Origin: a bacterium
GTDB taxonomy: Bacteria; Omnitrophota; Gorgyraeia; Duberdicusellales; 4484-171
DNA: 64,000 nt
Direction: 5' to 3'
Assembly: GCA_021796115.1 (NCBI GenBank)
Contig: JAJYOP010000007.1
Coordinates: 10,329-74,328, forward strand
The notes under the pieces are model-generated. The model searched no databases. It had not been told where the DNA came from and saw only the letters and a program-made list of their open reading frames with translations. Below are positions 1,598-64,000 of the stretch, one piece after another. The position numbers were made by a program, and so were the translations under genes. Position 1 is the first letter of the stretch. Each line of letters opens with the position of its first letter.

Positions 1598-4237
1598 ATG
1601 AAATCCAACGAGTTACGCAAAAAATATTTAAAATTTTTCGCGAAGAAAAATCACAAGATTTTTCCTTCAGACAGCCTTATCCCTGACGATCCAAGCGTGC
1701 TTTTTACGCCGGCAGGGATGAATCAATTTAAATCCTACTTTTTGGGCGAAAAGACCGATGTTAAGCGGGTAACATCTTCCCAGAAATGCCTGCGCGCCGG
1801 CGACCTTGATGAAGTCGGCCGCACGCCGTACCATCACACTTTTTTTGAAATGCTCGGGAATTTTTCTTTCGGCGATTATTTTAAACGGGAAGCCATCCAA
1901 TTTGCCTGGGAATTCCTGTCTTGCGAATTAAACATGAAGGAAAAGGATATTTGGATTTCCGTTTACAAGGATGATAATGAAGCGTATACGATATGGAAAA
2001 ATGAAATTGGCATACCGGCACAAAAAATAGTAAAACTTGGCGAAGATAAAAATTTCTGGCCGGCAAACGCACCGACAAACGGCCCCGATGGCCCTTGCGG
2101 TCCATGCTCAGAAATATTTTTTGACCGAGGCTCTAGCGTTGGCTGCGGTAAGTCTACCTGTAGCCCAGCCTGCGGCTGCCCGCGTTTTGTTGAATTCTGG
2201 AACCTGGTTTTTACCCAGTTTAACCGCCAGGGTGTAAATAATTTAAAACCATTGCCGCAGAAAAATATCGATACTGGCATGGGCCTTGAGAGAATGGCTG
2301 CGATATTACAGGGTAAAGTTTCGAATTTTGAAATCGACATCCTTGAACCGGCAGTTACCTTTGTTGTAAAATTTCTTAAAGCAGATATCAGTAACCCCAG
2401 AGATAAAAGTTTCGTTAATGCCATAGTTGACCACGCAAGAGCTGCAACTTTTGCAATTTGTGACGGCGTTTATCCTTCAAATGAAGATCGAGGCTATGTT
2501 ATCAGGAAAATTATCAGAAAAGCTTTGTACCATGCGCATATTTTAGCCAAGAAAGAAGCGTTTTTATATAGAATGGTGGAATTATATGCCGAACTCATGC
2601 AGGAACCATACCCTGAAATCGGCTCAAAGAAAAACGTAATTGCCAAAGTCATACGCACAGAAGAAGATAAATTCATTTCTAGTTTAAAAGATGCTGAATC
2701 GCAATTTTTCCTGATTGCCAAAAATCTGGAAAAAAATAAGAGCGATACGGTTCTAGCAGGGGATGTATTTAAATTGTATGACACTTATGGCCTTCCGCTT
2801 GAGCTGACCAAAGAAATGGCAGCAAGATCTTTGCTTAAAATTGATGAAAACGGGTTCAAAAAACTTCTTAGCATTCAGCAAGAGCGTTCAAGAAAAAGCA
2901 GTATGTTTGACGAAAATATATTTAAGGCAGAGGGTATAATTTTTAAAGAAACAACGGAATTTACAGGTTATGGCGAAAGCGAGATTAAAACGAAAATCCT
3001 GCATATGGTAAAGCTTGAGGCGGACAATGTTTCAAAGAGCGCCGAAGTAAAAGAGTTAGACACCGGCGAAGAGGGGGTAATTGTTTTAGATAAAACATGT
3101 TTTTATCCGGAAGGTGGCGGCCAATTAACCGATAAAGGGAAGATTTCTACGAAAGACGGAGAATTTTTAGTCGATAAAGTTTTTCGCAGCGCGCACGCTA
3201 TCCTTCATAAAGGGAAAGTTACCAGAGGAAAAATTTCTAAAACCACAGTTCACGGTTCGATAGATTTACAAAGGCGCCAGGCATTGAAAAGAGCGCACAC
3301 AGCTACGCATCTGCTTCAGGCTGCCCTGCGCAAAGTCCTCGGCGAGCATGTTATGCAGCAAGGCTCATTAGTTGATGAAGACCGTCTTCGTTTTGACTTT
3401 ACTCATTTTAAGGCGCTTGCTGAAGAGGAATTAAAACGCGTGGAAGATATTGTTAACGGGTTTGTGCTTGATTCAGACAAGATAATTAAGGAAGAACTTT
3501 CTTACAAAGAGGCAAAATCCCGCGGTGCGCTTGCATTTTTTAAGGATAAATATAAAGATACCGTCCGCGTAGTTTCTATAGGAAGTTACAGCAAAGAGCT
3601 CTGTGGCGGCACACACCTTGATTTGACTTCCGAGGCAGGTACGTTCATGATAGTTAGCGAGTCGTCAATTGCCAGCGGCATAAGAAGAATTGAGGCAATA
3701 ACCGGAAAAAAGGCTTACGAAAAAATTAAGGAATATAAAAATATTCTTTTGAATTTATCTGAAAAGGTAAAATGTCCTGTCGAAGAACTCATAAATTACT
3801 TTGAAAAACAGGAAAAAGATTTAAAAGATGCCAGAGCGGCTCTTTCTCTTAACGAAAAGCAAAACATCTCAGCTAAACTTAAAGAGGCATTGCAATCCAA
3901 AAAAGAAATCAACGGGATAGACTATCTGGCTTATGAATTGAAAAATACCAGCGGAACAGGGCTCATCGAAGCTTCGGATATATTAAGAAAAGAAATTCCG
4001 GAATTATTCATTCTGCTTATTTCTGAGGCTAACGGGAGAAATGTCTTTGTCTGTTCGGTAACCAAGGCCCTCCTTGAGAAGGATATCAGTGCCGCAAAAT
4101 TCGTTTCCTCGTATAAAGACGAATTACAACTTCGGGGCGGTGGCAAAGACGCGCTTGTTCAGGGAGTCATAACTAACAGGCTAGAGGATTTTTTAGTAAA
4201 AGCGGAAAACTGTATCGTTAAATTTTTGACAAAATAA
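1598..4237 (+). CDS. alaS: Alanine--tRNA ligase
   Basis: 879 aa; N-terminal class II core (LFTPAGMNQFK, FEMLGNFSFGDYFK), editing-domain HxxxH/CxxxH region (HTATHLLQAALRKVLG...CGGTHL), C-terminal DHHA1-like part. Confidence 0.95.
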   Translation: MKSNELRKKYLKFFAKKNHKIFPSDSLIPDDPSVLFTPAGMNQFKSYFLGEKTDVKRVTSSQKCLRAGDLDEVGRTPYHHTFFEMLGNFSFGDYFKREAIQFAWEFLSCELNMKEKDIWISVYKDDNEAYTIWKNEIGIPAQKIVKLGEDKNFWPANAPTNGPDGPCGPCSEIFFDRGSSVGCGKSTCSPACGCPRFVEFWNLVFTQFNRQGVNNLKPLPQKNIDTGMGLERMAAILQGKVSNFEIDILEPAVTFVVKFLKADISNPRDKSFVNAIVDHARAATFAICDGVYPSNEDRGYVIRKIIRKALYHAHILAKKEAFLYRMVELYAELMQEPYPEIGSKKNVIAKVIRTEEDKFISSLKDAESQFFLIAKNLEKNKSDTVLAGDVFKLYDTYGLPLELTKEMAARSLLKIDENGFKKLLSIQQERSRKSSMFDENIFKAEGIIFKETTEFTGYGESEIKTKILHMVKLEADNVSKSAEVKELDTGEEGVIVLDKTCFYPEGGGQLTDKGKISTKDGEFLVDKVFRSAHAILHKGKVTRGKISKTTVHGSIDLQRRQALKRAHTATHLLQAALRKVLGEHVMQQGSLVDEDRLRFDFTHFKALAEEELKRVEDIVNGFVLDSDKIIKEELSYKEAKSRGALAFFKDKYKDTVRVVSIGSYSKELCGGTHLDLTSEAGTFMIVSESSIASGIRRIEAITGKKAYEKIKEYKNILLNLSEKVKCPVEELINYFEKQEKDLKDARAALSLNEKQNISAKLKEALQSKKEINGIDYLAYELKNTSGTGLIEASDILRKEIPELFILLISEANGRNVFVCSVTKALLEKDISAAKFVSSYKDELQLRGGGKDALVQGVITNRLEDFLVKAENCIVKFLTK

Positions 4238-4338
4238 AGATGTTATCGCGGATGCAAACGAATGGTTACGGATGTCACGGATTAATCCGTTGAATCCGCT
4301 ATAATCCGTATGAATCCGTGTTATAAAAAAATAAAGCT
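4238..4338. promoter_or_regulatory. hisD upstream region with phased CGGAT / ATCCG repeat array
   Basis: cGGATgcaaacg..aCGGATgtcaCGGATtaATCCGttgaATCCGctataATCCGtatgaATCCGtg; about 10-bp spacing, three direct then four inverted copies. Confidence 0.4.
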
Positions 4339-6158: not shown

Positions 6159-6794
6159 ATGGCAAAGACAGCAAAAAAAACAAGAAAGGTAAAAATAGCC
6201 AGAAAAACAGCGGAAGTAAACATACAAGGTGAATTTAACATTGATGGTTCGGGCAAAACCAATGTTAAAACTCCTTTTGAACCGCTCAATCATTTGCTTA
6301 CGCTTTTTGCTTTTCATGGTTTGTTTGATTTGAATTTGCAGGCCAAAGGCGATTTAGAGCACCATATTATCGAAGATATCGGCATTGCCTTGGGAAAAGC
6401 TTTTAAGGATGCGCTTGGAGATAAAGCTGGCATAAACAGGTCTGCTTCGTTTTCTATGGCTATGGACAGGGTTGTTGTTGAAGCAAATGTAGATATAAGC
6501 GGAAGGCCAACATTACATCAAGCAAGGGGAAAAGGTAATCCAGACTTTGCGGATATTTTAGAACGTGAAAGGTTTGATAATACTAACTTTAGTTTTAATG
6601 ATGCAAAAGAATTTCTTGAGGCATTTGTCCAGCATGCAGGGATAAGCCTTGTCTATGATATCAAATCAGCAGAGGGAGATTTGCATCATCTTCTTGAAGC
6701 CTTGTTTAAAGCCCTGGGTAAAGCTTTAGATGAGGCTACCAAAATCGATCCACGCAGAAAAGGCATACCGTCCACGAAGGGAATAATTGATTAA
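6159..6794 (+). CDS. hisB: Imidazoleglycerol-phosphate dehydratase
   Basis: RKTAEV...TPFEPLNHLL..HHIIEDIGIALG...SFSMAMD; IGPD fold motifs; SD aaggag upstream. Confidence 0.85.
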   Translation: MAKTAKKTRKVKIARKTAEVNIQGEFNIDGSGKTNVKTPFEPLNHLLTLFAFHGLFDLNLQAKGDLEHHIIEDIGIALGKAFKDALGDKAGINRSASFSMAMDRVVVEANVDISGRPTLHQARGKGNPDFADILERERFDNTNFSFNDAKEFLEAFVQHAGISLVYDIKSAEGDLHHLLEALFKALGKALDEATKIDPRRKGIPSTKGIID

Positions 6795-6857: not shown

Positions 6858-7469
6858 ATGATTGTAATAATTGATTACGGAATGGGGAATTTAAGGAACG
6901 TGAAGAAAGCCTGTGAGTTTCTTGGCTCATCTGCTAAAGTAAGTGATTCTCTTTCTGTGATCAAAAAAGCAAAAAAAATCATTTTCCCCGGTGTCGGTAA
7001 TTTCGGCGAGGCAGTAAGAGAATTAAAGAAAAGAAAAATATTCGATACGCTTATCGAAGCTGCCGAAAGCAATGTGCCTTTTTTTGGCATTTGCGTAGGG
7101 ATGCAACTTCTTCTTGAGGGTAGTGATGAAGCTCCGGGAGCAAAAGGCCTTGGGCTTTTAAAAGGAAAAGTTAAAAAATTTAATGCCAAAAAAATGATTG
7201 TCCCGCATATGGGCTGGAACCAGGTCAAAATCAAAAGTAACGCAGACAACGGATTGTTCAGCAATATTAAGGATGGGAGTTATTTTTATTTCGCACACTC
7301 TTATTATTGCGATATCAAAGATAAAAAAACTATTCTTGCCACTACTAAATACGGTGTAGATTTTGTCTCTAGCTGCAATAAAGAAAACATCTGGGGTGTG
7401 CAGTTTCACCCGGAAAAAAGCCAGAAATTAGGCTTAAAGCTGTTCGAAAATTTTCTTAAACTATGTTGA
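6858..7469 (+). CDS. hisH: Imidazole glycerol phosphate synthase, glutamine amidotransferase subunit
   Basis: MIVIIDYGMGNLRNV... GICVGMQLL ... HSYY .. FHPEKS; class I GATase triad. Confidence 0.85.
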   Translation: MIVIIDYGMGNLRNVKKACEFLGSSAKVSDSLSVIKKAKKIIFPGVGNFGEAVRELKKRKIFDTLIEAAESNVPFFGICVGMQLLLEGSDEAPGAKGLGLLKGKVKKFNAKKMIVPHMGWNQVKIKSNADNGLFSNIKDGSYFYFAHSYYCDIKDKKTILATTKYGVDFVSSCNKENIWGVQFHPEKSQKLGLKLFENFLKLC

Positions 7470-8182
7470 TAATTCCAGCAATTGATTTATACGATGGGAA
7501 AGTTGTCCGGTTTGTGAAAGGCTCACCGGCCCACTCAACAACCTACAGCGGCAATCCGGTTTCTATCGCGCGTAAATGGAAAGAAGAAGGCGCAAGAGTT
7601 CTTCATATTGTAGATCTTTCCGCGGCATTAGGAGAATCCGATAACGCAGATATCATTGAGCATATCATCAAGGAAATCGATATCGATATCGAAGTGGGTG
7701 GAGGAATCCGCGATGCCGGAAAAGCGTTACGTTTTAAAAGGGCCGGCGCCAAACGGATAATCGTGGGAACAAAAAGCTTAGACGATAATTTTTTAAAAGA
7801 ATTCTTAAGTGCTTTGGGTAAAAATGCCTTAGCCGTGAGCGTTGATACCAAAGATGGTTTTGTGGCAACCAGAGGTTGGCAGGAAAAGAGTAAACTTAAA
7901 CCAATAGAGTTTATAGAGAAAATTATTGCTCTCGGCATAAGGTGGATAATTTATACCGATATATCCAAAGACGGAACCCTTGAAGGATTAAATTTTAAGG
8001 CTTTAAAAGAGCTTTCCGTTTTTAAGGGTGTAAATTTCATCGCTTCCGGCGGCGTCTCTGGTCTCTCTGACCTTAAAAAAGTCAAAGAAGAGCTTCCCTT
8101 TATCTGGGGTATAATCTCCGGCAAAGCCCTTTATGACAATAAGTTAACTTTTGCCGAAGCAAATTCATTCCTGGAGAAATAA
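7463..8182 (+). CDS. hisA: ProFAR isomerase (HisA)
   Basis: MLIIPAIDLYDGKVVR... (HisA-type N-terminus), GGGIRD, ASGGVS motifs; start overlaps hisH stop. Confidence 0.8.
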   Translation: MLIIPAIDLYDGKVVRFVKGSPAHSTTYSGNPVSIARKWKEEGARVLHIVDLSAALGESDNADIIEHIIKEIDIDIEVGGGIRDAGKALRFKRAGAKRIIVGTKSLDDNFLKEFLSALGKNALAVSVDTKDGFVATRGWQEKSKLKPIEFIEKIIALGIRWIIYTDISKDGTLEGLNFKALKELSVFKGVNFIASGGVSGLSDLKKVKEELPFIWGIISGKALYDNKLTFAEANSFLEK

Positions 8183-8200
8183 CATAATAATTATGTAACC

Positions 8201-9633
8201 CCAAAGTGATAATGTCCCTTTTGGGCAAAGTAAAAATGTCCCCTTTTACAATTGCTATAATATCTCTCGAAGGAGGGTATTATGGCAAAGAGAGGCATTA
8301 TCACAATGAAGCAGGAGGAACTAAAACGGCTCTACATCGTCCGTCAGGTACTGGATAAAAAGCTAAAACAGGTAGAAGCAGCGGATAAGCTTGCTTTGAG
8401 CTACCGTCAGACTAAACGAATAACTAAAAGAATAAAAGAAGAAGGCGATAAGGGAATAGTTCATAAATCAAGAGGTAAGCCCTCCCATAACCGTATAGCT
8501 CTTAAGATAAAGAATAAAGTAATCAATCTCTGCAGAGATAAATATAAAGGCTTTGGCCCTACCCTAGCTACAGAAAAGCTCTTTGAAATCGAAAAGATAA
8601 GGCTTAGCGATGAAACTCTTCGGAACTGGCTCACCCAGGAAGGCCTTTGGCAGCGCAAGCGCAAACATAAAGAATACCGCGCCTGGCGCGAACGCAAGCA
8701 CCGTTTCGGAGAAATGATTCAGTGGGACGGCTCGCATCATGCCTGGCTTGAAGATAGAGGCCCCTGGTGCGTGTTGATCAGCCAGATTGACGATGCTACC
8801 AATAAGAAATCCGGACAGTTCTATCCTTACGAAGGAACTTTGCCTGCCTTCTCAAGCCTTAAACAATACATAAGACGCTACGGCATACCCCATAGCATCT
8901 ATTTAGACAGGCACACAACGTATAAATCAAACAAGAAGCTCTCAATTAAAGACGAACTGAATGACAGAGAATTCTTAAGCCGGTTCGAAAGAGCCGCCAA
9001 GGAATTAGGCATAACCATAATCCATGCCAATTCTGCTCCGGCTAAAGGAAGAATCGAGCGCTCTTTTAAAACCGACCAGGATCGCCTGGTCAAGGAAATG
9101 CGCCTTGCGAATATAGCTACCATTGAAGAAGCCAATAAGTTCCTAAAGAAATACTGGCCTAAACATAACAAAAGATTCAGCGTAAAATCCATAGAAGAAG
9201 GCAACCTGCACAGGCCGATACCCGAGGGCACAGACTTAGACGCTATCCTTTGCAAAAAGACCGAGCATGTTTTAAGAAACGATTTTACTGTCGGCCATAA
9301 CAAGAAGTTCTATCAGATACTGGATAAGGCGATAGGCAAAAGCGTAACCGTCGAAGAAAGAATAAATGGCGCCCTTTATATTACTTACAACGGCAGGAAG
9401 CTTAAATACAAACAGGTAAAGGCCAGGCCAAAACAGAATAAACCAAAGCTTAAACTAAAGAACAGAGTTAAACCGTCCATGGAACACCCCTGGAGGAAAC
9501 CTTACGGTAAAAAGACGACAGCTTACGGAAAAGCGCTCTATCAAAATAAAAGCTATACCGAGGAATTAGTATTATCAGAGGTCTAAAAAGAGGCCATTTT
9601 AACTTTGGTAAAAAAGGGACATTTTAACTTTGG
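8201..9633. mobile_element. Insertion sequence (~1.43 kb) with ~22-bp terminal inverted repeats carrying a single transposase gene
   Basis: IRL ccaaagtgataatgtccctttt (8201-8222) vs rc of 9612-9633 ccaaagttaaaatgtccctttt (about 20/22 identical); additional subterminal ATGTCCC/GGGACAT copies at 8236-8243 and 9661-9668; single DDE transposase ORF inside. No clear target-site duplication seen. Confidence 0.6.
8282..9586 (+). CDS. IS481/ISNCY-family DDE transposase (N-terminal HTH + rve integrase core)
   Basis: 434 aa; HTH-like N-terminus, MIQWDGSHHAWLEDRGPWCVLISQIDDATNK..., YLDRHTTYKS ..., IHANSAPAKGRIERSFKT (D, D, E catalytic region of rve fold); flanked by inverted repeats. Confidence 0.8.
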   Translation: MAKRGIITMKQEELKRLYIVRQVLDKKLKQVEAADKLALSYRQTKRITKRIKEEGDKGIVHKSRGKPSHNRIALKIKNKVINLCRDKYKGFGPTLATEKLFEIEKIRLSDETLRNWLTQEGLWQRKRKHKEYRAWRERKHRFGEMIQWDGSHHAWLEDRGPWCVLISQIDDATNKKSGQFYPYEGTLPAFSSLKQYIRRYGIPHSIYLDRHTTYKSNKKLSIKDELNDREFLSRFERAAKELGITIIHANSAPAKGRIERSFKTDQDRLVKEMRLANIATIEEANKFLKKYWPKHNKRFSVKSIEEGNLHRPIPEGTDLDAILCKKTEHVLRNDFTVGHNKKFYQILDKAIGKSVTVEERINGALYITYNGRKLKYKQVKARPKQNKPKLKLKNRVKPSMEHPWRKPYGKKTTAYGKALYQNKSYTEELVLSEV

Positions 9634-9641
9634 CTTGACAA

Positions 9642-46602: not shown

Positions 46603-46625
46603 AATATCATACATACCTCATTTTT

Positions 46626-46829
46626 CTGAACATTCCCCGGAATTTAAGGGTATCTTGGCATAACTCTATGTAAAACAAGCGATAACGAAGATAAAAATCT
46701 ATGATTCTTCAGGGGGCGGAGGCAAACGGATTTTAGCGGATGCAGACGGATAAAAAACCTATAATTATCCGTATGCATCCACAATCATCCGTGACATCCG
46801 TCCTTAAAAATAAAAAAATGGGGAAGCTC
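46626..46829 (+). repeat. 204-bp dispersed repeat, copy A
   Basis: ctgaacattccccggaatttaagggtatcttggcataactctatg...ggatgcagacggataaaaaacctataattatccgtatgcatcc...aaaaatggggaagctc; about 98% identical to copies at 52532 and 63656. Confidence 0.85.
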
Positions 46830-46907
46830 CAGACCTCATTTTTTCCTTTAAAAATCTAAACTATGTGGTAATATACATAATTTAGGTTTTATCATTCTTG
46901 GATTATT

Positions 46908-47769: not shown

Positions 47770-48156
47770 ATGACAGGACAAAAACAAGCTTGGACTGACC
47801 ATAAGGTAGAGGTGTTTATCGGCAATCTTTTAAGAGCCGGCGTTATTGGTGCGGCCTTACTGGTTGTTTTAGGCGGCATAATTTATCTATTGCACCAGGG
47901 TTTGTCCCTGCCTGATTTTAAAACCTTTAAAGGCGAACCGCAAGAATTACGCCATGTAGGTGCAATTATCAAACATGCGTTTTCTCTTCACGGAAGGGGG
48001 CTGATACAACTTGGTCTCCTGGTATTGATTGCTACTCCAATAGCAAGGGTCGCGCTTTCAATATTTGCCTTTTCCCGCCAACGTGACAGGTTATACGTTA
48101 TCGTAACCTGTATTGTTCTTGCTGTTTTATGCTACAGTCTTTTTGGGGGCAGATAA
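47770..48156 (+). CDS. DUF1634 membrane protein (typical TauE partner)
   Basis: 128 aa, 3 TM, adjacent to and co-oriented with TSUP gene. Confidence 0.55.
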   Translation: MTGQKQAWTDHKVEVFIGNLLRAGVIGAALLVVLGGIIYLLHQGLSLPDFKTFKGEPQELRHVGAIIKHAFSLHGRGLIQLGLLVLIATPIARVALSIFAFSRQRDRLYVIVTCIVLAVLCYSLFGGR

Positions 48157-48196
48157 TACGGGGTGGTTATAATTTATTCAAAATGGACAAATAAAG

Positions 48197-48970
48197 ATGA
48201 TAAAAAAAATATCCCAAAATATTTCTAAACTACAAAATACTTTATTATTTATTTGCGCTACTTTGTTGCTGGGTATCATTATAACACTTGGATGGATTAA
48301 CCATTTTGATTTTGAACGCTCCGTCGTAAATGCGGAGTTGCGGGAGCTTTTAATTATTGCTAAGTCAGCCGGCCACGATATTGAAAACGGAATTATTGGC
48401 ATTAAACAAGAACCGGCTTATATAGATAAACTTATACAGCATATAAATAACGAGGAAAAGTTTGCGACTTTTGTTATGAACAATAAACACATTGTTTTAA
48501 GCAGCCCGATTAAAAGGCAGGTGGGCAAGAATATCATTGAAATTGGGAGAGAAATATTAAATAATAAAGAAATGCACAAATTAAGCAGGTTTGTGCAAAA
48601 ACTGGATTCGAACGACTCCGGAACAGCAATTTTACTTTTTCCTGCAAAAAGCGAAAGTTCAAAGAAAGAAATGAAGTTGTTTGCTTTCACTCATTTGAAA
48701 GGAAAAACCGGAATCTATTCTATTGTTGTGACAGAAAGGTTAAGCGCTCTCACGGGCCCGTTACGCAGAAATTTAAGAGATATATTAGTGCTGGTAGGGT
48801 TATTTTTCCTTATATCTTTAATCTTCATCTATATTTTTTATCATGGCCATCAGAAAAGGATAAAAATGGAAATCAGCGCCAAAGCCTTAGAGATAATCAA
48901 TAGAGAATTGCATTGTACAATTGATGACTATAAGTGTATTGAGAAGAAACTTAACGATTATAAAAAATAG
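48197..48970 (+). CDS. Two-TM membrane protein with periplasmic sensor-like domain and very short cytoplasmic tail (possible truncated sensor)
   Basis: TM1 aa 15-35, ~155-aa extracytoplasmic segment, TM2 ILVLVGLFFLISLIFIYIFY, 40-aa tail; no kinase/MCP domain. Confidence 0.45.
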   Translation: MIKKISQNISKLQNTLLFICATLLLGIIITLGWINHFDFERSVVNAELRELLIIAKSAGHDIENGIIGIKQEPAYIDKLIQHINNEEKFATFVMNNKHIVLSSPIKRQVGKNIIEIGREILNNKEMHKLSRFVQKLDSNDSGTAILLFPAKSESSKKEMKLFAFTHLKGKTGIYSIVVTERLSALTGPLRRNLRDILVLVGLFFLISLIFIYIFYHGHQKRIKMEISAKALEIINRELHCTIDDYKCIEKKLNDYKK

Positions 48971-49041
48971 ATGTTATCGGAAACTGCAAGCAGATATTAG
49001 GCCATTTTTGAATCTCTAAATAACTTCCCGGCGAATGCCTC

Positions 49042-49160
49042 CTTGCCAAATTTAGCCCTACCCTACATACCTGTAAAACGGGAAAGCTTTCTCCTTGTGA
49101 TATATGAGTGGGATCCATATTTTTGCCTTTGGCAAAAATATGGAACAATTGCGCAATAGA
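49042..49160 (+). ncRNA. Copy 2 of the ~50-nt intergenic family, with internal perfect hairpin
   Basis: cctgtaaaacgggaaagctttctccttgtgatatatgagtgggatcc; 20-codon GTG ORF 49096-49158 (VIYEWDPYFCLWQKYGTIAQ); hairpin ccatatttttgcc tttggcaaaaatatgg 49114-49142. Confidence 0.3.
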
Positions 49161-49574
49161 TAATAAAAGATATGGCAAAGCTCAATCGCGGTCTATTCTT
49201 TATTGCTCGATTGTTCAAACTGCCCTTAGGCGGGTTCAGTTAAAAAAAGACGGTATGGTTTTTTTATTAAAAATAGAACCATACCCTTGATTGTTAAATA
49301 ATAATTAAACATTGCGTTTCCAGATTTGTAATTCCAAATTAATTCTCTGGCTGAAAACTATAAGTTATGTTAATATCACAAATATAAAAAGGAAAAGTAC
49401 TGTATTTATACCGGTTGGCATTCTTATTCCGCCTTTGAAATATAAAACCTTGGTTATGGTAAAATTGGCGTTTGTTTTAGCCTATAACAGCCAGAAAAAT
49501 CAAATTCATAGTTAATTCTTTCTGCTTTGCGTGTTACTCTATCGAAAAGAACTGATTATTATAAGGTAATTAAA

Positions 49575-51308
49575 ATGAATCCCGAACTGACTCCTACCTA
49601 TTATAACCGCAAGACAATCATAGTCGTGCTTTCGTTAGGCTTATTATGTTTTGCAGCTTATGGAACAAGTATCCATAATGGTTTTCTGATGGATGATGCT
49701 AAAGCGGTTCAGCAGAATATTTTAATTAGAAACTTATTATCTTTCCCACAATATTTTCATCAACCATTCATGAAAGGTTATTATAGGCCAATGACTCAGT
49801 TTTCCTTTGCTTTAGATTATCTGATTTGGAAGCTGAATCCTTTAGGGTATCATTTAACTTCCATAGCTATACATTTTTTAAATAGCGTTCTATTATTCAT
49901 CCTGCTGCAAATAATATGGGAAAGATTTGCGCTGTCATCAGTGGTATCGTTTTTATTTGCCGTTCATCCTTTAGGCAGTATAGCTGTCAATTATGTCGCT
50001 GACAGAAGCAACCTTTTAGGCACGTTATTTATGCTAAGCGCATTAATAGCATTCTGTGTGGCCTGGAAAGGATACGACAGGAGATTTTACCTGGTAGGTT
50101 TCTTATTCTTTATTTGCAGTCTCTTAAGCCACGAAAGCGCAATTTTATTTCCATTATATTTATTCTGTACCCTCTCACTGCTATCTAAAAAATCCGATAC
50201 AAAAAAGTTGATAATCCTGACTGGTTTTGCCATTTTTATAAGTTTTGGATATTATCTATTGCATATTCTCTTTTTTAACTTTGGCACAAAAATATTCCCC
50301 GATATTAAATTGCAGGAATATTTTCGAAATCTGCCCGCATTATTTTATTTAATTTTTAAATATCTCTTGCTTGCAATATGGCCCGTCAATATTTGCCTGA
50401 TTCGTTCTCTTGCCCCGATGCCAACTTTCAGCCCACTAGGAATCTTTTATATATTTCTAGGCATCGTTTTTATCTCTCTGGTACTAATCAAATTTCGTAA
50501 AAACCGAGTCATACTTTTTTCTTTGGCATGGTTTCTTATCGGGGTTTTACCGTTATACCGTATGATGTTTGCACGGCCGGAAATGGGGTTGATTATGCAG
50601 GATAACTGGATATATTTTGCTTCTATAGGATTGCTGATTATTTACGGCCAATGCATTTTATTTTTAAGGAAATTTTTTAAAAAATGGTTAATTTTATTAT
50701 TGGCACTTTTGTTTTTTTATATAAATCTAGACCTGTTTAATAATGCGTTATGGAAAAACGGGGAAACGTATTGTTCTTATTGGCTTAAGGTAGTTCCGAA
50801 AAATCCACTCGCTTTTAACGGAATGGGGGTATTTTATACTGATAGGAAAAATTATAAAAAAGCAAAAGAATATTTCTTAAAAGGAGTATTTTGTTGCAGG
50901 AAGATAAATGGTTTAAGTGTGACTAACGAACTAATACCAGGAAGATTATTGGGGGAACTTTTAAATAACCTGGCTATAGTTTCAGATATGGAAGGCAACC
51001 CGGATGAAGCAAGGCGTTATTGCGAGTTGGCAATTATGAGCTACAATAATAACTCCGACGCCTATTTTTTTCTGGGCAACTTATATTTGCGAAAGAATGA
51101 TATAGATAAAGCCATTTTATATTATAAAGAGTCAGTGAAAAAAAATTATTATCGAATGGATGCTCATCGGCAACTAGCGCTACTTTATTCTTTAAAGGGT
51201 AATAAAAAAGAAGCAATTAAGGAAGCTATGGCGGCAATCTCTCTAGATCCAAACTGTTTTAACGTATTTGGCAATACGCAGGGTGTTCGGAATACAAAGG
51301 AAAAATAA
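49575..51308 (+). CDS. TMTC/DUF1736-like GT-C fold glycosyltransferase with C-terminal TPR repeats
   Basis: ~10 TM N-terminal domain with YYRPMTQFSFALDYLIWKLNPLGYHLTS (PMT/TMTC-like loop), C-terminal TPR repeats (AYFFLGNLYLRKNDIDKAILYYKESV...). Confidence 0.65.
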   Translation: MNPELTPTYYNRKTIIVVLSLGLLCFAAYGTSIHNGFLMDDAKAVQQNILIRNLLSFPQYFHQPFMKGYYRPMTQFSFALDYLIWKLNPLGYHLTSIAIHFLNSVLLFILLQIIWERFALSSVVSFLFAVHPLGSIAVNYVADRSNLLGTLFMLSALIAFCVAWKGYDRRFYLVGFLFFICSLLSHESAILFPLYLFCTLSLLSKKSDTKKLIILTGFAIFISFGYYLLHILFFNFGTKIFPDIKLQEYFRNLPALFYLIFKYLLLAIWPVNICLIRSLAPMPTFSPLGIFYIFLGIVFISLVLIKFRKNRVILFSLAWFLIGVLPLYRMMFARPEMGLIMQDNWIYFASIGLLIIYGQCILFLRKFFKKWLILLLALLFFYINLDLFNNALWKNGETYCSYWLKVVPKNPLAFNGMGVFYTDRKNYKKAKEYFLKGVFCCRKINGLSVTNELIPGRLLGELLNNLAIVSDMEGNPDEARRYCELAIMSYNNNSDAYFFLGNLYLRKNDIDKAILYYKESVKKNYYRMDAHRQLALLYSLKGNKKEAIKEAMAAISLDPNCFNVFGNTQGVRNTKEK

Positions 51309-51309
51309 G

Positions 51310-52077
51310 ATGCTGTGTGGTAAAAAAATTGTTGTGGTTATGCCGGCATATAATGCCGAAAAAACGCTGGGAAAGACCTATGACAAAATTCCTAAAAATA
51401 TTGTGGACGAAGTTATAATAGTAGATGATTATAGTACGGATGAAACAGTCAATATAGCGAAAAAGATTGGTTTAGAACCTTATATCCATGAAAAAAACAA
51501 AGGTTATGGTGCGAACCAAAAAACCTGTTATAAACTAGCAATCAAGCACAATGCTGACATTGTGATAATGCTTCACCCTGATTATCAATATCCCCCCGCA
51601 TTAATTACTGCAATGGCTAGCTTATTATGTTCCGATATGTTCGATATAGTCCTGGGGTCGCGTATACTGGGAGGATATGCTCTTAAAGGAGGTATGCCGT
51701 TGTACAAGTATATTTCTAACAGGTTACTTACTTTTGTAGAGAATTTAATTCTTGGAATAAAACTATCCGAATATCATACAGGTTACAGAGCATTCACAAG
51801 AAAAGTGCTTCTGGAGATGCCGTTGCTGAATAATTCCGATGATTTCATTTTTGATAACGAAATCATTGTTCAGGCTGTTTATTTTGGTTACAAAATAGGC
51901 GAAATAACAGCCCCATCTTCTTATGGGGAAGATTCTTCCAGCATAAATTTGTGGAGGAGTATTGTTTATGGTTTAGGCGTGTTGTTAACGACGTTAAAAT
52001 TTTTATTACAAAGTTTGAAAATCGCAAATTTTTCAATATTTGATCCAAAAGGCAAAAAGCTTTTGGTGGAAGATTGA
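51310..52077 (+). CDS. GT2 polyprenyl-phosphate glycosyltransferase (Dpm1/Ppm1-like)
   Basis: VVMPAYNAEKTL...IIVDDYSTDETVNIA...DADIVIMLHPD (DXD) ... C-terminal TM; ATG 51310 directly after upstream stop. Confidence 0.75.
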   Translation: MLCGKKIVVVMPAYNAEKTLGKTYDKIPKNIVDEVIIVDDYSTDETVNIAKKIGLEPYIHEKNKGYGANQKTCYKLAIKHNADIVIMLHPDYQYPPALITAMASLLCSDMFDIVLGSRILGGYALKGGMPLYKYISNRLLTFVENLILGIKLSEYHTGYRAFTRKVLLEMPLLNNSDDFIFDNEIIVQAVYFGYKIGEITAPSSYGEDSSSINLWRSIVYGLGVLLTTLKFLLQSLKIANFSIFDPKGKKLLVED

Positions 52078-52531
52078 TTTAATCCTCGCTAGATACCCCA
52101 GTCTTTAGAGTAGGGATGCTTCGCTTTGGCAGAAAGATAAATTTCAGATATCAAAAATACGAGCCTTCGCCGGCCAATATACGGCCAGTGAGGGCTTTAT
52201 TTTTGATAAAGATTCGTTAATAAGAGAATAATAATTTAAATCCCTTGCATCTCTGCAAGCTCCGGCGTTCTGTCTCTTTCCGCAAGGGGTTAAAGACGAT
52301 AAGCTGGCCCTTGACAAGATTCAGCGTTATTTTTATGCTGTAAGAAAAAGGAATGTTTTATCGGACAGGATTACCTTTGTTCAGAAAAAACTTTATTGCT
52401 TTTTTCATGGATTCGAAAAAGATGATTAGCACTAAGACCAGCATGACAATGGTAAGGATGGCGTTTAAATTTCCCTGGAAAGTGTGTTTAGGCAGGTAAT
52501 TATTTTATGTTATCAAGGCCAGCCACAAATT

Positions 52532-52735
52532 CTGAACATTCCCCGGAATTTAAGGGTATCTTTGCATAACTCTATGTAAAACAAGCGATAACGAAGATAA
52601 AAATCTATGATTCTTCAGGGGGCGGAGGCAAACGGATTTTAGCGGATGCAGACGGATAAAAAACCTATAATTATCCGTATACATCCACAATCATCCGTGA
52701 CATCCGTCATTAAAAATAAAAAAATGGGGAAGCTC
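52532..52735 (+). repeat. 204-bp dispersed repeat, copy B
   Basis: Near-identical to 46626-46829; runs in frame into the malic enzyme ORF (no stop). Confidence 0.85.
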
Positions 52736-52828
52736 CAATCACAAATTTTCTTGAAAATTACCACAGTTAGTCCTATAATAACCTCCTTATACGCCTGGAG
52801 ATTTTGTCAAATATTAAAAGGAAGTGCA

Positions 52829-62918: not shown

Positions 62919-63653
62919 TTGCCTCATTTAACAATGAAAAGGCCATTTGTTTTCTTTTGCATCTTTCTGCTGGCAGGAATTTTTCTGGCAGTAATCACCT
63001 ACTCGGAAAGCTTATTGCCATTACTTTATTTTTTCTGGAAAAGCCCGTTTTTAATTTTTATCAGGACAATCTGTATTCTGTTATTTGTCTTTTTGCTTTT
63101 TAAAAAAATTGATCAAAAACTAGTCCCTAAAAATTGGTTGAAATTTATTTTTGGAATCATCTTTCTACCGGTGCTCTTTCTGCCGATTTTACGCTGTTAT
63201 TTTAGAGTTCCCTATATTTTCTGCCGTGCCTGCCCAAACAAATGCCCATGGGGGATGTCGCGGACTTTCTTTTTTGATTCTTTTATTGCGCTTAATCTCT
63301 CCAAAAAATTCTGGTGCGCAAATGTTTGTCCTTTTGGGGCATTCCAGGAGTGCCAGGCGCAAATATCAAAGAAGAACCTGAGGCTTCCTGCCTGGCTATC
63401 CCCATCTTCTTACCTTATTTTATTTATTCTTCTTTGCATGTATTTGTTAACTTTTTTGGGATTACCGGCAATAAAATTCTTTGGCCTTTGGATGTATGCC
63501 TGGGCTGTCGCATCAGTTTCCATTGCGGTTCTTGTCATCGCCGCTGCATTTTTTGTTCCCAGGATTTTTTGCCGTTATATTTGTCCGGTAGGAACAATCG
63601 CAGAATTAAGTTTTAAGTTTAAACGCTGGTTAGGATTGGATAAACACTTTTAA
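62919..63653 (+). CDS. NapH/MauN-like membrane protein with 4Fe-4S-type Cys motifs
   Basis: CRACPNKCPWG, CANVCPFGAFQEC, CRYICPVGTIAE; multiple TM. Confidence 0.55.
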   Translation: MPHLTMKRPFVFFCIFLLAGIFLAVITYSESLLPLLYFFWKSPFLIFIRTICILLFVFLLFKKIDQKLVPKNWLKFIFGIIFLPVLFLPILRCYFRVPYIFCRACPNKCPWGMSRTFFFDSFIALNLSKKFWCANVCPFGAFQECQAQISKKNLRLPAWLSPSSYLILFILLCMYLLTFLGLPAIKFFGLWMYAWAVASVSIAVLVIAAAFFVPRIFCRYICPVGTIAELSFKFKRWLGLDKHF

Positions 63654-63655
63654 TC

Positions 63656-63859
63656 CTGAACATTCCCCAGAATTTAAGGGTATCTTGGCATAACTCTATG
63701 TAAAACAAGCGATAACGAAGATAAAAATCTATGATTCTTCAGGGGGCGGAGGCAAACGGATTTTAGCGGATGCAGACGGATAAAAAACCTATAATTATCC
63801 GTATACATCCACAATCATCCGTGACATCCGTCCTTAAAAATAAAAAAATGGGGAAGCTC
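63656..63859 (+). repeat. 204-bp dispersed repeat, copy C
   Basis: Near-identical to 46626-46829 and 52532-52735. Confidence 0.85.
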
Positions 63860-64000
63860 AAGTTTTAATTTTCTGTTAGCTAAAATTCAAAATGAGACTT
63901 TTTAAAATTGAAAAGTAGACAATCCTAGCTCATGCTTTTTGATTCTTTGTACATCGATGAGTTTATTGTTACCCCAGAACCTTAATTCTATGAGTGTGTT

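Follow-up and report, generated by a model that had tools for sequence, protein, structure and literature searches.

Among the MITEs of prokaryotes, the Correia elements of Neisseria and the RUP elements of Streptococcus pneumoniae are known to duplicate TA only. Prokaryotic MITEs have been reviewed (PMC10969869; PMC11602168), and their size range is ~50-800 bp (PMC11602168). Among the insertion sequences of the IS4 family, those with 5'-CT ends are associated with duplications of 9 bp (IS10), 8-9 bp (IS50) and 7-8 bp (ISPepr1), and a preference for AT-rich targets is listed for ISPepr1 (Table 1 of "IS4 family goes genomic"; PMC2266710). A full-text literature search found no paper naming both Omnitrophota and MITEs.

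The stretch of DNA analyzed in this study (64,000 nucleotides; hereafter, the window) comes from an uncultured Omnitrophota bacterium and contains a single direct-repeat family, for which the repeat finder returned the spans 46622-46842, 52528-52748 and 63652-63872. The three repeats are very probably copies of a small non-coding MITE that was recently inserted in gene-free spacers. Like the Correia and RUP elements and other prokaryotic MITEs, the element is small, lacks a transposase, has inverted ends and flanking duplications, is intergenic, is found as near-identical copies and has strong hairpin potential. Its inverted repeat is short (13 nt), and its duplication, in contrast to that of the Correia and RUP elements, is ~9 bp. 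We consider it a new MITE family of a well-known kind in an under-studied phylum; the oddities of its palindrome and of its position relative to -35 boxes, which are described below, do not make it a new kind of system. The copies, their ends and the duplications that flank them are as follows.

46626 to 46832, + strand: MITE copy A, 207 bp (repeat search, alignment and BLAST)
52532 to 52739, + strand: MITE copy B, 208 bp, with one additional base at the right end (repeat search, alignment and BLAST)
63656 to 63862, + strand: MITE copy C, 207 bp (repeat search and alignment)
46626 to 46638 (A), 52532 to 52544 (B) and 63656 to 63668 (C), + strand: left terminal inverted repeat, CTGAACATTCCCC, identical in all three copies
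46820 to 46832 (A), 52726 to 52739 (B) and 63850 to 63862 (C), - strand: right terminal inverted repeat, CTGGAGCTTCCCC as read on the minus strand
46615 to 46625 (left) and 46833 to 46843 (right), strandless: target-site duplication of copy A, ACCTCATTTTT (11 nt), abutting the element ends
52524 to 52531 (left) and 52740 to 52747 (right), strandless: target-site duplication of copy B, CACAAATT (8 nt), abutting the element ends
63648 to 63655, strandless: left target-site duplication of copy C, TTTTAATC, which includes the stop codon of the upstream gene
63863 to 63870, strandless: right target-site duplication of copy C, TTTTAATT, a 7/8 match to the left one with TTTTAAT(C/T) in common

A preliminary description of this DNA had reported three co-oriented copies of a 204-bp repeat with ~98% identity. 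Both the repeat search and the alignment recovered the three copies at these places as a single three-copy family, and the reported identity agrees with the pairwise value of 98.5% that was obtained by BLAST. The repeat itself stands, while its reported length does not, as the true units are 3-4 bp longer (207, 208 and 207 bp). Only 7 alignment columns vary among the copies, and the divergence among them is ~1.5%. When the copies were aligned together with their flanks by MAFFT, near-complete identity inside the repeat gave way to noise at two columns, which did not differ between the copies. These sharp boundaries, common to the three copies, are CTGAAC... at the left end and ...GCTC(CAG/CAAT/AAG) at the right end, where the last 1-3 bases vary by copy (CAG, CAAT or AAG). 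The terminal 19-mers of the left and right ends each occurred three times in the window, compared to the 0.00-0.03 occurrences expected by chance. Segmental duplication is ruled out, as the flanks of the copies are unrelated.

The copies are also found in an independent k141 short-read assembly (ENA ERZ27233560), in which three contigs start or end within them. The first contig ends at element position 173 of copy A, the second spans from position 62 of copy A to position 173 of copy B, and the third spans from approximately position 37 of copy B to position 173 of copy C. The repeat parts of these contigs are 100% identical to the matching window copy, copy-specific SNPs included. That contigs are broken at each copy is attributed to the effect of a dispersed repeat on a de Bruijn assembler, and the element thus explains the fragmentation of the short-read assembly at exactly these places. 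An assembly artefact, a concern raised in the preliminary description, is ruled out by these contigs with their copy-specific SNPs and by the matching flanking duplications; since matching repeats are found on either side of each copy, the joins must be correct.

The terminal sequences CTGAACATTCCCC and CTGGAGCTTCCCC match at 10 of 13 positions, inverted and in exact terminal register (binomial p = 1.9e-4). At 13 nt, these imperfect inverted repeats are at the low end of the range expected of MITEs (at least 10-15 bp). Each copy is also flanked by a direct repeat of its own, i.e., ACCTCATTTTT for copy A, CACAAATT for copy B and TTTTAAT(C/T) for copy C, the lengths of which are uneven as read (11, 8 and 7-8 nt, respectively). 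When random 207-bp segments of the window were used as a null, with a repeat of at least 7 nt required and 2 nt of slack allowed, flanking repeats were found for 0.12% of the segments, and for 0.28% of those with AT-rich flanks. The joint chance probability of flanking duplications at all three copies is 1e-8 or less. Because these repeats are different at each copy, they are target-site duplications that lie outside the element, and the three insertions were therefore independent; the low divergence among the copies indicates that the insertions are also recent. The Fer4_5 gene upstream of copy C is intact, its TAA stop codon being part of the left duplication. The element is thus found in unrelated contexts, with three copies in the window whose flanks are unrelated and one diverged copy in another metagenome, where the duplication, YAAAGAGAT, is again a different one. 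The statement in the preliminary description that no convincing terminal inverted repeats or target duplications could be found is contradicted by these results, which include both (ends matching at 10/13 positions and copy-specific direct repeats of 11, 8 and 7 nt). A composite transposon bounded by copies A and B is ruled out, given that each copy has its own duplication and that the outer flanks of A and B are mismatched.

The diverged copy was found by scanning metagenomes with a degenerate pattern of the central palindrome, the remaining hits of which were mostly due to chance. It is located on another Omnitrophota metagenome contig, L129 (Ga0265297_10001695 of sample 3300029288; 1,287 bp analyzed), and is an end-to-end homologue of the element, with the left end CTGGACATTTCCC and the right end ...GGGAAAACTCCG. 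Its identity to the window copies is 85% at the left end and 86% in the central palindrome, compared to only 44% at positions 14-65. One terminal position is altered at both ends together, from C:G to T:A, such that the symmetry is kept, as is expected if one protein reads both ends. The L129 element lies downstream of a prepilin gene, the homologues of which are labeled Omnitrophota, and is flanked on both sides by YAAAGAGAT (CAAAGAAAT [element] TAAAGAGAT followed by AA...). The orthologous pilin loci from other samples (L231, L232-236 and L237-240) can be aligned to L129 across the pilin gene and the terminator that follows it, and the alignment shows that all three groups of loci lack the element entirely. 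Instead, they read ...(C/T)AAAGAGAT AAA TTGACA..., in which the 9-mer YAAAGAGAT is present once. L129 and the three orthologous locus groups are a filled/empty site pair with a 9-bp target duplication, which demonstrates that the family inserts as a discrete unit. An empty site, as expected for a MITE, is thereby available for the L129 member of the family. The suggestion of recent MITE-like spread made in the preliminary description is upheld by the terminal inverted repeats, the copy-specific duplications and this filled/empty pair. The case for a MITE rests on the three window copies and this one diverged relative, which together provide a clean example of a MITE family with a filled/empty pair in a candidate phylum for which no described MITE was found, and point to an uncultured Omnitrophota genome with recently active transposition.

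We also noticed that L129, read as its reverse complement, has ~150 nt separating the pilin terminator from the MITE that have no counterpart in L231, L232 and L237. An ACGGAT...ATCCG hairpin is found in this extra sequence, as is the tract TTAAAAATAAAAAAAT, which recurs near the right end of the MITE. The stretch resembles the degenerate remains of a related element that was inserted earlier, beside the intact one.

At 207-208 bp, the element is small and contains no transposase gene, as its ORFs do not exceed 46 aa. The ORFs in the element are 39 aa in copy A and 32 aa in copy C and are fused into a 518-aa ORF in copy B; the longest ORFs of the element are 39 and 46 aa. The small ORF described previously, which runs in frame into the malic enzyme gene in copy B, is thus a genuine open reading frame. 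A protein-level search found no homologues of the element ORF peptides, and no exact database entries were found for them. The in-frame fusion in copy B is fortuitous. The start of the malic enzyme gene has been called in three ways (52646-52828; 157-1635 of locus L083), yielding proteins of 457, 492 and 518 aa. The 457-aa form is that of the NCBI record (P0009), the 492-aa form is the ENA gene call, which starts at an ATG within the right end of the MITE, and the 518-aa form is the longest ORF. Homologues of the malic enzyme are 452-465 aa long, and their alignments begin at residue 1-15 when the 457-aa form is used. A true N-terminal extension is ruled out, as the homologues fit the 457-aa form, and we regard the 492-aa start as an annotation artefact. 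The element accounts for the false N-terminal extension of the malic enzyme by gene callers (492 or 518 instead of 457 aa).

Given that the element has no coding capacity, some transposase must move it in trans, and we infer mobilization of this kind. The element would accordingly be a 207-bp non-coding DNA transposon that is not self-mobile. In the proposed mechanism, a transposase encoded elsewhere in the genome would recognize the two CTG....TTCCCC ends, excise or copy the element, and insert it where AT-rich intergenic DNA is cut in a staggered manner. Once the cut is repaired, a short direct target duplication would remain on both sides, the length of which is 9 bp by comparison with the empty site and 7-11 bp when read from the window copies.

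By analogy, the partner transposase might tentatively be sought among the CT-ended subgroups of the IS4 family (IS10, IS50 and ISPepr1), as suggested by the 5'-CT ends, the duplications of 7-9(-11) bp and the AT-rich targets of the element. The 5'-CT start, the duplications of 7-9 bp and the AT-rich targets would fit those listed for these subgroups, from which the element differs in having no transposase gene and in the 11-nt duplication of copy A. Compared to the IS4 range of 7-9 bp, the duplications are 9 bp in L129, 8 in copy B, 7-8 in copy C and 11 nt in copy A; the last of these and the variable right-end bases misfit a strict 9-bp rule. On plasmid R100, the IS10 ends beside an IS4-like transposase gene read CTGATGAATCCCC and CTGAGAGATCCCC and have CTG.....TCCCC in common with the ends of the element, a match at 8/13 positions that may be coincidence. 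Neither a transposase with matching ends nor a DDE transposase that has a YREK motif and lies between the element ends was found in the 64-kb window or the retrieved loci. The window and 2.6 Mb of retrieved loci contained no other matches to the element ends, and inverted pairs of the terminal motif across the retrieved loci were chance pairs only, from unrelated taxa.

The only insertion sequence in the window is an ISNCY-family element at 8194-9640, flanked by hisA (7463-8182) on one side and a cold-shock-like gene on the other. The 434-aa product of its ORF (8282-9586) scores 374 bits against NF033594, the NCBIfam model of ISNCY-family transposases. The 29-nt inverted repeats of the element (TGTAACCCCAAAGTG.../...CTTTGGCTTGACA) have a doubled motif in subterminal position, and the start of short-read contig k141_1109000 within the element (window position 9501) suggests that it is multi-copy. 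It is ruled out as the partner of the MITE, as its ends are unrelated.

The most prominent internal feature of the MITE is a palindrome, which in copy A is located as follows.

46712 to 46805, strandless: central palindrome of copy A, ~90 nt

Its left arm in copy A contains three (A/G)CGGAT motifs, which start at 46726, 46736 and 46746 (spacing of 10/10 bp), and its right arm contains four ATCC(G/A) motifs, which start at 46767, 46777, 46787 and 46796 (spacing of 10/10/9 bp). The 14-bp stem that had been noted inside a longer imperfect palindrome was recovered as ggatgcagacggat/atccgtatgcatcc, and these 14 nt are the tip of the ~90-nt palindrome. Judged against L129, no other part of the family is conserved as well as the palindrome (86%). 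Arrays of the ATCCGT type are found 8 times in the 64-kb window, compared to once in 1.44 Mb of other retrieved genomes.

Such a palindrome raises the question of whether the repeat is a small structured RNA gene or a multi-copy RNA leader, for which the folding of both strands, far better than that of shuffled sequence (z = -5.7 and -5.4), could be cited. Strong folding of both strands is, however, what a DNA palindrome gives. No Rfam 15 family matched at its gathering score anywhere in the whole window, with hits to this region having E of 0.1 or more, i.e., at chance level, and neither strand has a terminator-like site after the hairpin. As the target duplications also indicate insertion, an RNA of this kind is extremely unlikely. 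An intrinsic terminator is ruled out, because the hairpin is not followed by a T-run on either strand.

The palindrome also bears on whether the repeat could be a REP/REPIN-type palindromic element moved by a RAYT, i.e., an IS200/IS605-like tyrosine transposase. Its ~90-nt core hairpin of two inverted arms is like that of REP doublets, and a second palindrome of the same motif type, 88 nt long, is found at 4240-4327. REP/REPIN elements have, to our knowledge, neither terminal inverted repeats of this kind nor target duplications. In contrast to REPs, the arms of this element are arrays of direct 6-nt motifs at 10-bp spacing rather than single palindromic sequences, and it is the whole 207-bp unit, with its terminal inverted repeats and the 87 nt left of the palindrome, that moves with target duplications. 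An absence of target duplications and an associated RAYT gene would be expected of a REPIN; here the copies do have duplications, and the Pfam tables, which cover part of the window, list no RAYT gene. We therefore see next to no chance that the repeat is a REPIN, and the MITE remains the preferred reading. Integron attC sites are ruled out by the spacing of 5.9 and 11.1 kb, by the target duplications and by the lack of an integrase among the Pfam-tabled genes (~9.5-64 kb of the window).

Sequences with related motifs were also observed elsewhere. The palindrome at 4240-4327, located between the stop codon of alaS and the start codon of hisD, is flanked by the 9-mer AAAATAAAG at 4231-4239 and 4328-4336 and contains four (A/G)CG(G/A)AT and four ATCCG(T/C) motifs at 9-10-bp spacing. 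It has the block GCGGATGCARACG in common with the MITE core, while its ends differ, and it may represent a second, smaller mobile palindrome family. On other metagenome contigs, palindromes with the same GCGGATGCA(G/A)ACGGAT motif are found at ~1100-1160 of L133 and ~10060-10130 of L199, so arrays of this motif type may be spread beyond this genome. In L146 (Ga0315310_10000009), a 27-nt exact match and a 34-nt match of 88% to the left palindrome arm of the MITE are found at 6219-6252 and 8549-8575. These are located at the 5' ends of two paralogous ORFs for secreted proteins of 606 and 629 aa, directly after a strong ribosome-binding site. If translated, they would read ...CKRILADAD..., and they are either element fragments or miscalled gene starts.

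The genes downstream of the copies are unrelated in function. As described previously, the + strand genes downstream of copies A and B encode a TauE protein and a malic enzyme, respectively, which was verified by their domains: the gene following copy A encodes a sulfite-exporter-like TauE protein (PF01925), and that following copy B encodes a malic enzyme (PF00390/PF03949). Copy A is located 24 nt past the stop codon of an upstream small heat-shock-like ORF and 100 nt ahead of the likely start codon of TauE, and copy C starts 2 nt after the stop codon of the gene for a Fer4_5 membrane protein. Each window copy is located between the end of a gene and the next promoter, with copy C having no recognizable promoter nearby. 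The promoter-like sites next to copies A and B are as follows.

52751 to 52779, + strand: promoter-like site TTGAAA-17-TATAAT (11/12), outside the element and 3 nt past the right duplication of copy B
46847 to 46874, + strand: weaker promoter-like site TTTAAA-16-TAATAT (8/12, with TG upstream of the -10), outside the element and 3 nt past the right duplication of copy A

Only three sites of the TTGAAA-17-TATAAT class are found on the + strand of the window. The site next to copy A was read from the sequence, as it scored below the threshold of the promoter scan. In L129, the target site is likewise followed by 3 nt and then by TTGACA-17-TAATAT (10/12), and no recognizable promoter adjoins copy C. 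Thus, in 3 of the 4 sites (A, B and L129), the insertion is exactly 3 nt upstream of a -35 box. This offset, seen among four sites, may reflect a target preference for AT-rich DNA upstream of promoters, the survival of harmless insertions only, or a regulatory role. It should be noted that proximity to promoters is partly expected, as the intergenic spacers are short.

The preliminary description had offered homogenization of a shared regulatory leader as an alternative to mobility. A leader or promoter cassette kept identical by gene conversion, and itself immobile, would fit the three co-oriented copies upstream of + strand genes, and homogenization could in principle give the high identity among them. 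It is nevertheless very improbable, because the copy-specific duplications and the filled/empty pair are signatures of insertion and not of conversion, and because the promoter-like sites lie outside the element, in A and B as separate sites between it and the gene. The genes that follow the copies have no functional relationship to one another, their start codons lie at variable distances from the element, and the repeat has no Rfam match. The alternative is not borne out by these data, and the insertion of a MITE remains the reading that we favor.

A regulatory contribution of the MITE itself is a different matter. The element may have been co-opted as a cis-regulatory module, with its phased ATCCGT array serving as the target of a DNA-binding protein or its right end as an outward promoter, such that each insertion would alter the expression of the gene downstream. 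Several observations are consistent with such a role. The central palindrome is conserved at 86% between the window copies and L129, compared to 44% for positions 14-65; the 10-bp motif spacing would place the motifs on one helix face; and a similar array is found as a separate 88-nt element ahead of hisD. Moreover, the element with its duplication ends 3 nt before the -35 hexamer at A, B and L129, and all copies face the gene that follows them. Every copy also contains a weak promoter-like site that points outward, GTGACA-17-AAAAAT (9/12). However, this site scores no more than 9/12, three copies would share one orientation by chance with a probability of 0.25, and copy C has no recognizable adjoining promoter. 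The sample comprises four sites, and we consider co-option rather unlikely. The more specific proposal of a mobile cis-regulatory cassette, predicted from sequence features, is quite improbable; such a cassette would carry conserved, helically phased ATCCGT motifs as putative sites for a DNA-binding protein and would be inserted or retained at a fixed position, in the order right end, ~9-bp duplication, 3 nt and the -35 of sigma-70-type promoters. If this were the case, unrelated genes (TauE, malic enzyme and pilin-like) would be drawn into one Omnitrophota regulon.

Searches for the MITE beyond the window and L129 covered several collections. Exact scans found nothing in GTDB species genomes with a 24-mer of the element, nothing in JGI metagenomes with a 22-mer of the left end, and nothing in viral contigs with an exact pattern; a 16-mer scan of the viral contigs returned chance seeds only, and blastn found no match to plasmids or phages. 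The organism is represented only once in the collections searched. Each of the eight window proteins tested was a singleton in 90% clusters, so there are no strain variants in which empty sites of the window copies could be sought. Candidatus Omnitrophota/Omnitrophica are its nearest named relatives. The closest relative of the malic enzyme is 84% identical (L086-88) and non-syntenic, and neither the element nor ATCCG arrays were present in L086-88; the identity of GTDB malic-enzyme relatives is 66-67% at most.

With regard to the window as a whole, every ORF of at least 200 aa is located on the + strand, and the cumulative GC skew climbs monotonically. The region from 48001 to 52000, which lies between copies A and B and contains TPR/glycosyltransferase genes, has a G+C content of 0.34-0.35, compared to the window average of 0.40.
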